Shown: positions 21,847 to 41,001 of the stretch, piece after piece
Position numbering within the stretch: the stretch's first letter is position 1
Layout of the letters: each line of letters starts with the position of its first letter
Assembly (NCBI GenBank): GCA_029883265.1
Contig: JAOUJM010000001.1
Coordinates: 10,511 to 74,510 of the forward strand
DNA: 64,000 nucleotides
Direction of reading: 5' to 3'
DNA from: Gammaproteobacteria bacterium
GTDB taxonomy: Bacteria; Pseudomonadota; Gammaproteobacteria; S012-40
Notes under the pieces: model-generated
Told to the model about the DNA's origin: nothing
Database searches by the model: none
Seen by the model: only the letters and a program-made list of their open reading frames with translations
Position numbers and translations under genes: made by a program

Positions 21847-22839
21847 TTATTTAAACGCGTTGATAAAATATTGCATATCGTGCAAATCCACAGGGTCCAA
21901 ATAACTTTGCCATGGCAAGGGCTGTTTCGCTTCATTTACGGCCGGTACGGCAATACGAGTGCCTGCGGCTTCTGGCATTTGTCCGGGGCCAAAACGATGC
22001 CAGCCAATGTCCCTACCATAAGATACATCATTAAGTGCCATAACAGCCGCGAGTAAATTTTTTGGGACTGTACCCCATTGGTTGAGGACGGAGTCCACCA
22101 CTGGACTAGCCTGGAGTGTGCTCAATATTTCACCCGGCGTATAGAATGCGTAAACATTTTTCTTTAAGTGATTCCGATCCATTCCATAGCGCTCAATTGT
22201 ACCATCACTGAGTCCTGCCGCGTTAAAGGTAACCGCACTGGATTTCAACCTGCCAGCTTGTGCCGAAGCAATGCCGCCACCGAGGGAGTGACCGGTAAAG
22301 GTTAGTGGTGATGAGCCTAACGCTATTTGAAGATCAATTGCAAGATTGATCCCAAATTCATATTGGGTCGAATTGAAATCGGATCCTTGAGCAATACTTG
22401 CTACTGCATCTTTAACCGCTTCATGCCGGCCCAATTTCGTATCCGTTCCTCGATTGGCGAATATAAATTCGCTTGTGCGATAATTAAAATAGAGTGCGCC
22501 TTGGTAGCCACTCTTCTTATCTACAAAATTTTCAGGTTTCATATCCAGGACATCAATAAAATCCCTACCCATGCGGTAAATATCCTCAGTGACTTTCTTT
22601 GGTTCCTTTCCGGTGTATTCTTGATAAACATCGTCAGATACCATAGCGTTTTCATACCAATCAAGGCTTCCACTAAAGTCCAGTCTGATTGGAGCGGCAC
22701 TAGCAAGCTGCGAGTTATATAGCGTTCCGTTTTCATCAACTAGCTGTCCGTTCTTGAATGTGAGTATCGGTTTGGTTTCAACGGCATCGGATGATTGTCT
22801 ATAAGGAATTTTGCCTGGGGCAGAGTTTTGGACGCTTAC
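21847..22839 (-). other. Transposon-encoded C-terminal toxin domain of the giant ORF (aa 6055-6384): alpha/beta-hydrolase lipase/phospholipase-type (GxSxG)
   Basis: VSVQNSAPGKIPYRQ...YQGALYFNYRTSEFIFANRGTD...LTFTGHSLGGGIASAQAG.... Nucleophile elbow GHSLGG preceded by an (A/F)xxRGT strand, as in class-3 lipase-like effectors. Confidence 0.7.

Positions 22840-41001: not shown

Follow-up and report, generated by a model that had tools for sequence, protein, structure and literature searches.

The stretch of DNA analysed here, referred to below as the window, comprises 64,000 nucleotides of contig JAOUJM010000001.1 from Gammaproteobacteria bacterium. It carries a giant gene for an Rhs/YD-repeat polymorphic toxin at 21847..41001, with a product of 6,384 aa plus the stop codon according to the open reading frame (ORF) call, Pfam and NCBIfam. 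The gene lies at the end of a flagellar-type cluster in which export gate, ATPase, rod, L/P rings, hook and hook cap are retained and stator, flagellin and hook-junction genes are missing. Judging from this conserved genomic context, we favour on balance the reading that a non-rotary type III export apparatus of flagellar origin has the giant Rhs protein as its cargo. A preliminary description of the same DNA had held that the export route could not be deduced from the sequence, and had listed flagellar export as just one of three options. The former view is not supported, as the family N-terminus and the recurrent motor-less cluster, sigma factor and TPR proteins give a specific candidate route. 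Coordinates are those of the window, and the Rhs, immunity and flagellar-type genes discussed below all lie on the minus strand.

A motor-less flagellar-type cluster linked to Rhs genes

Read from the window together with the matching contig L083, the full cluster opens with the export and rod half, FliQ-FliR-FlhB-FlhA-FlgF-FlgG-FlgA-FlgH-FlgI-FlgB-FlgC-FliE-FliF-u163-FliH-FliI, continues with u149-u226-FlgD-FlgE-(266-aa SpoA protein)-FliN-FliO-FliP-sigma-TPR185-TPR362, and has the Rhs gene last, all on one strand. Within the window, Pfam identifies FliF, FliE, FlgC, FlgB, FlgI, FlgH, FlgA, FlgG and FlgF at 57267..64000, the last being cut at the window end, and FliP, FliO, FliN (99 aa), the SpoA protein at the FliM position (266 aa), FlgE, FlgD, u226, u149, FliI and FliH at 49551..56745. 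FlhA, FlhB, FliR and FliQ lie beyond the window end and were read from L083. The product u226 stands at the FliK position and u149 at the FliJ position; regarding the latter, its equivalent in locus L092 has a FliJ match. Genes for Mot proteins, flagellin, FlgK/L and FliD are absent from the cluster, a statement that covers about 31 kb of cluster DNA and not the whole genome. Between fliF and fliH lies u163 (56779..57270), a truncated FliG of 163 aa with the N-terminal and middle domains only. In a profile search of the PDB, the u163 profile built from seven orthologues matched these two domains of FliG in 8z4d (E = 9.5e-7) and also in 3usw, 4fq0 and 3hjl, and the protein ends short of the C-terminal domain that generates torque. 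In all related clusters this place is taken by a gene of about 160 aa, never by a full-length fliG, with truncated FliG orthologues of 155-190 aa in L006, L016, L027, L033, L067, L070, L088, L090 and L173. Truncated FliG could be a simple genomic marker for non-rotary flagellar-type systems.

The last gene of the flagellar-type cluster encodes a FliA-like sigma-70 family factor (48804..49538; Sigma70_r2/r4), whose position in the order FliP-sigma-(TPR)-Rhs is conserved across loci. Two cytoplasmic TPR proteins, both identified by Pfam, follow. TPR185 (48206..48763) has homologues after the sigma factor in L090, L125, L126 and L148; its assignment as a class II chaperone of type III secretion systems (T3SS) was rejected, the PDB matches being generic TPR proteins only. 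TPR362 (47101..48189), which has no signal peptide, is the native upstream neighbour of the Rhs gene and a candidate chaperone or adaptor, and its homologues adjoin Rhs genes in 19 loci, some without flagellar genes nearby. At present a third gene, TPR119 (41186..41545), lies just upstream of the Rhs gene. Its protein is nearly identical to the C-terminus of TPR362, and it represents a duplicated 3' fragment of the TPR362 gene. A 300-nt direct repeat (41065-41364 and 46980-47279, 99% identical), consisting of the 3' end of the TPR362 gene and 121 nt downstream, brackets an insertion of 5.9 kb (insert 41365-46979) that contains three genes for exported proteins or lipoproteins (491, 310 and 424 aa) and parts the Rhs gene from TPR362. 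Since TPR119 is a duplicate of the 3' end of TPR362 and the insertion is bracketed by the repeat, the native order is sigma-TPR185-TPR362-Rhs. The products u310, u491 and the DUF6973 protein were rejected as parts of the system because Sec or lipoprotein signals are present, related loci contain no homologues of them and their genes are located inside the insertion. The 424-aa lipoprotein (44815-46089, minus strand) matches DUF6973 (E = 4.6e-21) and, more weakly, the Pfam family ‘wnt’ (E = 7.7e-5, 22.8 bits against a cut-off of 20.3 bits). Judging from these profiles, it may be a member of the ‘lipocone’ superfamily of bacterial Wnt-like proteins presented in PMC12419801, which does not name DUF6973.

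The linkage is not peculiar to the window. A scan of species-representative genomes with the Rhs N-terminus (6-sequence alignment) gave 241 relatives, and 80 loci were examined. The same cluster in the same order was present in 16 of the 62 Rhs-anchored loci with more than 8 kb upstream, plus L037, and 13 of these carriers are co-directional with the order ...FliP-sigma-(TPR)-Rhs. The carriers belong to the Alpha-, Beta- and Gammaproteobacteria and include Steroidobacter, Hahella, Caulobacter, Brevundimonas, Sphingomonas, Ramlibacter and Ideonella; in all, the synteny recurs in four proteobacterial/myxobacterial lineages. Culturable carriers in which the Rhs gene adjoins the cluster are Steroidobacter flavus CGMCC 1.10759, Hahella sp. 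NBU794, Brevundimonas intermedia CCUG 45022 and Caulobacter vibrioides T5M6. In L173, picked only for its long contig, FliF...FliP-sigma is followed by the Rhs gene 179 bp further on. In L087, a metagenome-assembled genome (MAG) of Anaeromyxobacter found via the lipase domain, Rhs, lipase and Ank are followed directly by FliQRFlhBA-FlgFGAHI. Furthermore, a sigma-anchored metagenome scan gave 29 loci in which downstream DNA extended over 2.5 kb or more; the family Rhs N-terminus was recovered downstream in 10 of them, and convergent giant YD ORFs were observed in three more (10-13/29 in all).

These data bear on whether the adjacency is coincidental, in that two mobile accessory modules would share genomic islands while being functionally unconnected. 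We consider this improbable. The order and orientation of FliP-sigma-(TPR)-Rhs are kept at identities of 50-56% for FliI and 32-35% for the sigma factor, and the association was recovered from three independent anchors, namely the Rhs N-terminus, the lipase C-terminus and the sigma factor. Moreover, the proportions of 16/62 and 10-13/29 lie far above the roughly 1-2% expected by chance, a rough and uncomputed estimate from the flagellar share of a genome. Such hitch-hiking would nonetheless suit a plastic region, to which the insertion sequence (IS) copies of the IS66 family and the 5.9-kb insertion testify, as well as the group II intron maturase fragment after the sigma factor in L088 and the only partial association.

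Other secretion systems do not recur beside the family. Among 109 ORFs representing the two nearest upstream neighbours in 55 non-flagellar Rhs loci, TPR was the only recurrent Pfam family, and VgrG, PAAR, Hcp, two-partner secretion (TPS) and HlyD families were not among the 25 most frequent. Neighbours belonging to type VI (T6SS), type I (T1SS) or TPS systems were accordingly rejected; an ABC exporter lies upstream only in L026, L046 and L071, and the histidine kinases and response regulators are generic. No T6SS genes are present in the 64-kb window.

Some of the related loci deserve separate mention. In L090 (gamma proteobacterium IMCC1989), gene calling at 9292-9979 reduces fliP to a fragment of 39 aa, and the opposite strand carries an ORF of 197 aa. 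Here tblastn still aligns 236 aa of FliP, indicating a frameshift or assembly error; the sigma-TPR185-TPR362 module is intact, and an ATP-grasp-like gene occupies the expected place of the Rhs gene. In two sigma-anchored metagenomic loci, L124 (12755-20716, minus strand) and L132 (13061-20716, minus strand), the adjoining giant ORF exceeds 2,500 aa, runs off the locus and has almost no YD motifs. From these two loci, giant proteins of a different kind may also be associated with the flagellar-type apparatus. The MAGs L030 (‘Parcubacteria group’) and L055 (‘Pirellula sp.’) contain flagellar clusters of proteobacterial type on contigs that are probably mis-binned, and the Rhs N-terminus of L030 closely resembles those of the Caulobacter loci.

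The giant Rhs protein and its family

The giant gene is one uninterrupted ORF with an ATG start and GGAG 7 nt upstream as ribosome-binding site. An identical 6,384-aa product was called in an independent metagenome assembly (ENA ERZ27296342, contig k141_160683), the arrangement of Rhs 3' end, ankyrin gene and IS66 element recurs in three further metagenomic samples, and a fragment from an NCBI MAG (‘Gammaproteobacteria bacterium’) is 100% identical to the protein across 947 aa. The ORF is genuine and an assembly artefact is excluded; the single ORF of 19.2 kb initially reported is thus upheld by its intact counterpart in the second assembly. For domain scans, the protein was cut into four chunks and searched with Pfam at E<=0.01 and NCBIfam at E<=0.1. 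RHS_repeat (PF05593) matched all four chunks with E = 2e-24 to 4.6e-65 and TIGR01643 was also matched, so that the product is an Rhs/YD-repeat polymorphic toxin; NF041261 of NCBIfam matched the YD regions only. There was no match for PAAR, TPS, LXG, WXG, RTX or the RHS-associated core, regular expressions for prePAAR, PxxxxDPxG and YxPFGE were negative over the whole protein, and MIX and FIX domains were equally absent by Pfam, NCBIfam and regular expression. The canonical Rhs core end was rejected on motif and profile searches, here and, one internal motif apart, across the family. A Kyte-Doolittle scan gave a sole strongly hydrophobic stretch at aa 5786-5818, so the protein has no Sec signal. 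It follows that the preliminary description was right on three negatives: an N-terminus without signal peptide, the lack of a PAAR, TPS, LXG or WXG handle, and the missing core-end motif PxxxxDPxGL. It had overlooked the N-terminal DUF6531, the family-defining peptide, the identity of toxin and immunity protein, and the flagellar-type context.

The N-terminus defines a family. An exhaustive search at E<=1e-10 gave 1,075 representative clusters, which with few exceptions align from residue 1. Many members have 4,000-7,900 aa; among the 146 best family matches, 78 have at least 3,000 aa and 41 at least 5,000 aa, with the largest at 7,935 aa. The start is near-invariant, MVA(I/V)(V/I)SGxGLGL, or MVAIVSGxGLGL in short, with A3 and G11 invariant, and the same Met with an MVA-type start is used in 81 of 83 homologues. 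The entropy of aa 1-17 (1.35 bits) is close to that of the DUF6531 core (1.16 bits), while that of aa 18-38 is 1.95 bits. Among 79 giants, the N-terminal 140 aa fall into one cluster (78/79) and the C-terminal 250 aa into 70 clusters; a uniform N-terminus with hypervariable C-termini is the classical signature of polymorphic toxins. The core-end motif PxxxxDPxGL was found in one of 78 giant members, where it is internal. By its sequence, the giant Rhs protein belongs to a large, uncharacterised Rhs subfamily without PAAR and without the canonical aspartyl-protease core end. Lysobacter and Lysobacteraceae MAGs also carry Rhs proteins of the MVAIVSGxGLGL family.

The architecture can be followed from the N-terminus onwards. 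The first segment is the family-defining peptide (aa 1-38, 40888..41001), MVAITNGEGLGL..., a candidate export or chaperone-binding signal according to homologue starts, entropy and the AlphaFold2 (AF2) model. The latter, computed for aa 1-800 with a mean predicted local distance difference test (pLDDT) score of 69, is disordered over aa 1-34 (pLDDT <50) and then forms beta-hairpins matching solved Rhs cores. The disordered segment is yet highly conserved, and there is no accepted sequence test for export signals. A Met1-conserved, predicted disordered peptide would be the expected look of an N-terminal export or chaperone signal, for which it is a candidate only. DUF6531, the start of the Rhs shell/plug region, follows at aa 40-95 (40717..40884; PF20148, E = 8.9e-7), and then a first, family-conserved YD-repeat segment at aa 96-345 (39967..40716; alignment A1 and Foldseek). 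The model of this segment matches the Rhs cores 8qja, 7q97 and 8cp6 in Foldseek, which agrees with the YD-like N-terminal part described earlier, and aa 1-345 are common to many proteobacterial Rhs proteins. Two beta-propeller-like units come next. Unit 1 (aa 346-800, 38602..39966) has an all-beta AF2 model with Foldseek matches to PLL lectins and sialidases. Unit 2 (aa 801-1250, 37252..38601) is its tandem duplicate, with 28% identity across 394 aa (BLASTP, E = 1e-38). The twin units noted at first inspection are thus confirmed as a duplication, and their fold is propeller-like at moderate model confidence, with a TM-score to the target of 0.57 against 7-bladed lectins (model pLDDT 69).

The YD-repeat body with non-YD inserts extends over about 4,400 aa (aa 1251-5681, 23959..37251), as had been proposed and as Pfam RHS_repeat matches, YD-motif density and the hidden Markov model (HMM) of LysM now demonstrate. 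One insert at about aa 1926-2003 is CBM60-like (E = 2.2e-5, under the Pfam cut-off), and further inserts lie at about aa 2685-2780, 3955-4175 and 4555-4800. Regarding LysM modules, three copies are good by the LysM HMM: a tandem pair at aa 5041-5092 and 5096-5147 (aa 5041-5147, 25561..25881; Pfam LysM, E = 4.9e-17) and one at aa 5701-5752. Two others, near aa 1257 and 2090, are just degenerate half-matches. The body is followed by a conserved pre-toxin module (aa 5682-6020, 22942..23958) composed, in order, of DFDQNY, the LysM copy at 5701-5752, NNADTFKPYxPxxIIGxTxP (here NNADTFKPYSPGEIIGSTDP), a Pro-rich stretch and a hydrophobic, Gly/Ala-rich region. It is common to 13 homologues, which then diverge into different toxins, e.g., a YwqJ-type deaminase; as read from these alignments, the module stands in for the canonical Rhs core end. 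Orphan copies of it were not found within the window. The hydrophobic stretch mentioned above is located here as a transmembrane-like segment (aa 5786-5818, 23548..23646), in agreement with the earlier assignment. The helical linker of about 100 aa that had been placed after it is visible only in the low-confidence C-terminal AF2 model (pLDDT 43), which was left out of the fold search.

Overall, Pfam, the PDB match and Foldseek support the concept of a YD/Rhs protein of encapsulation type that has LysM modules for peptidoglycan binding, bears probable binding decorations in the form of propellers, beta-sandwich inserts and a weak CBM60 match, and carries a C-terminal toxin. The narrower label ‘teneurin/Tc-like’ is apt as a resemblance only. 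As in the TcB-TcC cocoons of Tc toxins and in teneurins, which are among the Foldseek matches, a YD shell is combined with a beta-propeller and with a C-terminal toxic domain that is encapsulated there. However, SpvB, TcdB_mid and the release motif of the aspartyl-protease core end were not found in the giant protein by Pfam and regular expression, no TcA gene exists among the neighbours, and the propellers are two and are placed after the first 345 aa.

Lipase toxin, probable immunity gene and downstream region

The C-terminal toxin presumed at the outset can be identified as a Tle6-type phospholipase domain (aa 6116-6384, 21850..22656). It matches PDB 7ubz_B, ‘T6SS lipase effector’ (Enterobacter cloacae Tle), with E = 1.8e-10 and with GHSLGG, at aa 6237, aligned to GHSLGG; the alignment spans only the Ser elbow region, with Glu and His not placed and the C-terminal model at pLDDT 43. 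PF26363 (Phospholipase-like) is assigned to the same domain in precomputed annotation. Immediately downstream lies a gene for an ankyrin-repeat protein (21095..21823; Ank_2, E = 8e-12), the likely cognate, Tli6-like immunity protein, which begins with a signal peptide and a Cys-containing lipobox-like sequence. Ankyrin immunity proteins ‘invariably’ accompany Tle6 lipases (PMC11470151), and Ank genes also follow the homologous lipases in L086 and L087. From its sequence features and position, the ankyrin-repeat lipoprotein is likely the periplasmic immunity protein of the predicted lipase. The pair resembles known Tle6/Tli6 pairs (Enterobacter cloacae Tle-Tli, PDB 7UBZ/9CYS; Serratia Slp) in the homologous alpha/beta-hydrolase lipase with its GHSLGG elbow and in the immediately downstream ankyrin immunity protein with a signal or lipoprotein N-terminus. 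It differs in that a giant Rhs protein here carries the lipase as C-terminal cargo, whereas theirs is a stand-alone T6SS effector.

The lipase being closest to the T6SS effector Tle6, an orphan Rhs effector of the T6SS, or of another known system, might be considered, which would lack PAAR and be loaded by an adaptor encoded elsewhere. The nearest solved structures of the N-terminal shell are likewise T6SS Rhs effectors, and DUF6531 is common among T6SS Rhs proteins. The effectors in question (P. protegens RhsA 7Q97, P. aeruginosa Tse5 8CP6 and Advenella VgrG-Rhs 8QJA) provide the best structural matches of the modelled N-terminal part and share a YD shell with a DUF6531-type plug region and, at the C-terminus, a toxin that varies and is followed by an immunity gene. 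Nevertheless, we regard such an origin as very unlikely. PAAR, prePAAR, MIX and FIX searches were all negative, VgrG linkage and the PxxxxDPxGL core end are missing, and VgrG, Hcp and PAAR are not among the 25 most frequent neighbour families cited above. T6SS genes, as would be expected for Tle6-style delivery, occur neither in the window nor in the related loci examined. Furthermore, the giant Rhs protein is four to six times larger than these effectors, and family members of 4,000-7,900 aa are several times the size of the matched ones (about 960-1,350 residues). Inserted propellers, LysM modules and sandwiches, together with a different conserved pre-toxin module, complete the distinction.

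It could also be argued that the protein is primarily a giant surface adhesin or fibre, anchored to peptidoglycan via LysM and binding through its propellers and sandwiches, with a minor or vestigial lipase. The presence of more than one LysM module, of propeller units and of modules resembling beta-sandwiches or CBMs would fit such a role. The intact GHSLGG nucleophile motif, an adjoining ankyrin immunity gene kept in three independent loci, the hypervariable family C-termini, which constitute an arms-race signature, and an orphan TNT toxin module downstream all make it a very remote alternative.

Beyond the immunity gene, the window contains further accessory DNA. A 327-aa ORF (17834-18817, minus strand) has a C-terminal TNT domain (tuberculosis necrotizing toxin, NAD+ glycohydrolase; E = 2.3e-20). 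Its start coincides with that of an IS66 element; the IS has therefore probably truncated an orphan toxin cassette here, and the small ORF downstream at 17096-17500 could be a TNT immunity gene. About 20 small ORFs (100-275 aa) occupy 1700-17500 on the minus strand, the strand of the Rhs gene; none of the 10 scanned had a Pfam match. In appearance, this series resembles the array of orphan immunity and toxin genes of a polymorphic toxin locus. Two IS66-family elements (6847-9185 and 18733-21044, plus strand), each with orfA, orfB and a DDE transposase, stand in direct orientation; being just 78-87% identical, they do not derive from a recent duplication. Finally, a 152-nt direct repeat, 97% identical, is located at 957-1108 and 1548-1699 with a spacing of 591 nt.

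Proposed export route and its meaning

On the favoured reading, the motor-less hook-basal body would serve as a type III export apparatus of flagellar descent, with the Rhs protein as its dedicated late substrate. Once assembly of basal body and hook has finished, the sigma factor would turn on the TPR and Rhs genes. A TPR362-type protein would then hold the polypeptide in an export-competent state and offer its conserved disordered N-terminus to the FlhA/FliI platform, after which the chain of about 700 kDa would be threaded unfolded through rod and hook and thereby cross both membranes. Outside the cell, the chain would fold into one or more YD shells enclosing the C-terminal region, and the propellers, beta-sandwich inserts and LysM modules would bind the envelope of a neighbouring cell. 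The hydrophobic pre-toxin module may subsequently aid entry of the lipase to the target periplasm, where membrane phospholipid would be destroyed. In a broader form, the clusters with truncated FliG and without filament genes in many Proteobacteria and some Myxococcota might constitute a distinct secretion system, with giant Rhs proteins as dedicated cargo by means of MVAIVSGxGLGL and TPR chaperones; this generalisation we hold to be quite possible, though short of probable.

Several points weigh against export of the giant Rhs protein by this apparatus. About three quarters of the Rhs-anchored loci and more than half of the sigma-anchored loci have no association within 10 kb, and the sigma-anchored sample is slightly biased in that alignment A7 took in sigma factors from Rhs-linked loci. 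Among sigma homologues located on long contigs, the three closest (Marinobacterium D7, IMCC1989 and L089) have the cluster, with Rhs downstream in none of them. With 10-13 of 29 sigma-anchored loci positive and these three close homologues negative, the linkage is strong but non-obligatory. The sigma-28 promoter TAAA-N15-GCCGATAA had no match upstream of the Rhs gene and fliQ, and the 10-mers shared upstream of Rhs and fliQ genes are unconvincing. The Rhs N-terminus does not resemble flagellar axial N-termini in hhalign (83-sequence profile against 20), where the match probability was 0.07; its likeness by eye to hook, rod or flagellin proteins was rejected on that result. A substrate of 6,384 aa would exceed by far the size of all known substrates of flagellar T3SS. 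Emergence with the N-terminus first leaves the enclosure of the C-terminal toxin unexplained, and the LysM modules could instead be anchors to the producer's own wall.

The same observations give some weight to a link without transport, in which the Rhs protein is co-regulated or co-acting (contact, predation) with the motor-less apparatus and leaves the cell by an exporter of another kind, in vesicles or by lysis. The sigma factor directly upstream of the TPR/Rhs genes, an Rhs N-terminus unlike known flagellar export signals and the many family members encoded far from flagellar genes would all be accommodated. The flagellar T3SS (FT3SS) of Lysobacter is, moreover, pleiotropic and also affects twitching motility (PMC7688988). 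Such a link appears to us unlikely, although the least so of the alternatives. No alternative secretion genes recur near family members, the giant protein has no Sec signal, its Met1-conserved, predicted disordered peptide looks like an N-terminal export or chaperone signal, and cytoplasmic TPR partners accompany even orphan Rhs copies.

Two known systems provide the nearest parallels to the proposed route. Lysobacter enzymogenes OH11, which has no flagellum, keeps an FT3SS-like gene set in which flgBCFG, flgHI, fliF, fliN, flgDE, flhAB, fliPQR and fliI are present and fliC, full-length fliG and fliM were not found; this system secretes FlgD and is required for export of toxic antifungal proteins (PMC7688988). 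As substrates of this system, one protease, one glucanase and one protein of the HAD family have been reported, and Rhs is not mentioned (PMC7688988). The window cluster is like it in gene content, a likeness that rests on gene lists. As for YD-repeat toxins, delivery of the tRNase toxin WapA of Bacillus subtilis was reported to depend on fliOPQR-flhBA, via nanotubes (PMC6456723). WapA differs from the giant Rhs protein in that it has a Sec signal and is wall-associated, its dependence is ascribed to nanotubes and not to T3SS passage, and wapA has no genomic linkage to a dedicated motor-less cluster. It is the only published case found of YD-repeat toxin delivery depending on flagellar export-gate genes. 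The model of the flagellar CORE and nanotubes for WapA is disputed; as a Sec-dependent protein, WapA is a precedent for unfolded export of YD toxins. A full-text search found no literature linking Rhs to a flagellar-type apparatus, its coverage being incomplete and an earlier description possible, and no flagellar route is given for Rhs in a survey of polymorphic toxins from 2012.

Gram-negative Rhs toxins are known almost only as T6SS cargo, and the exit of Rhs proteins without PAAR from the cell is one standing puzzle. A second is the function of residual flagellar export genes in bacteria that have no flagellum, e.g., Lysobacter. The giant Rhs locus joins these two puzzles and, with its relatives, makes both testable in culturable strains. 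If the broader proposal is true, the clusters would add to flagella and injectisomes a third functional branch of type III machinery and would give Gram-negative Rhs proteins a new export route. Export of the giant Rhs protein would mean a new use of type III secretion, a size record for T3SS substrates and a large reservoir of toxins and immunity proteins (70 C-terminal clusters among 79 representatives). If export proves false, the family would still stand as a class of giant polymorphic toxins that is major, lacks annotation and has a release module of non-canonical type.

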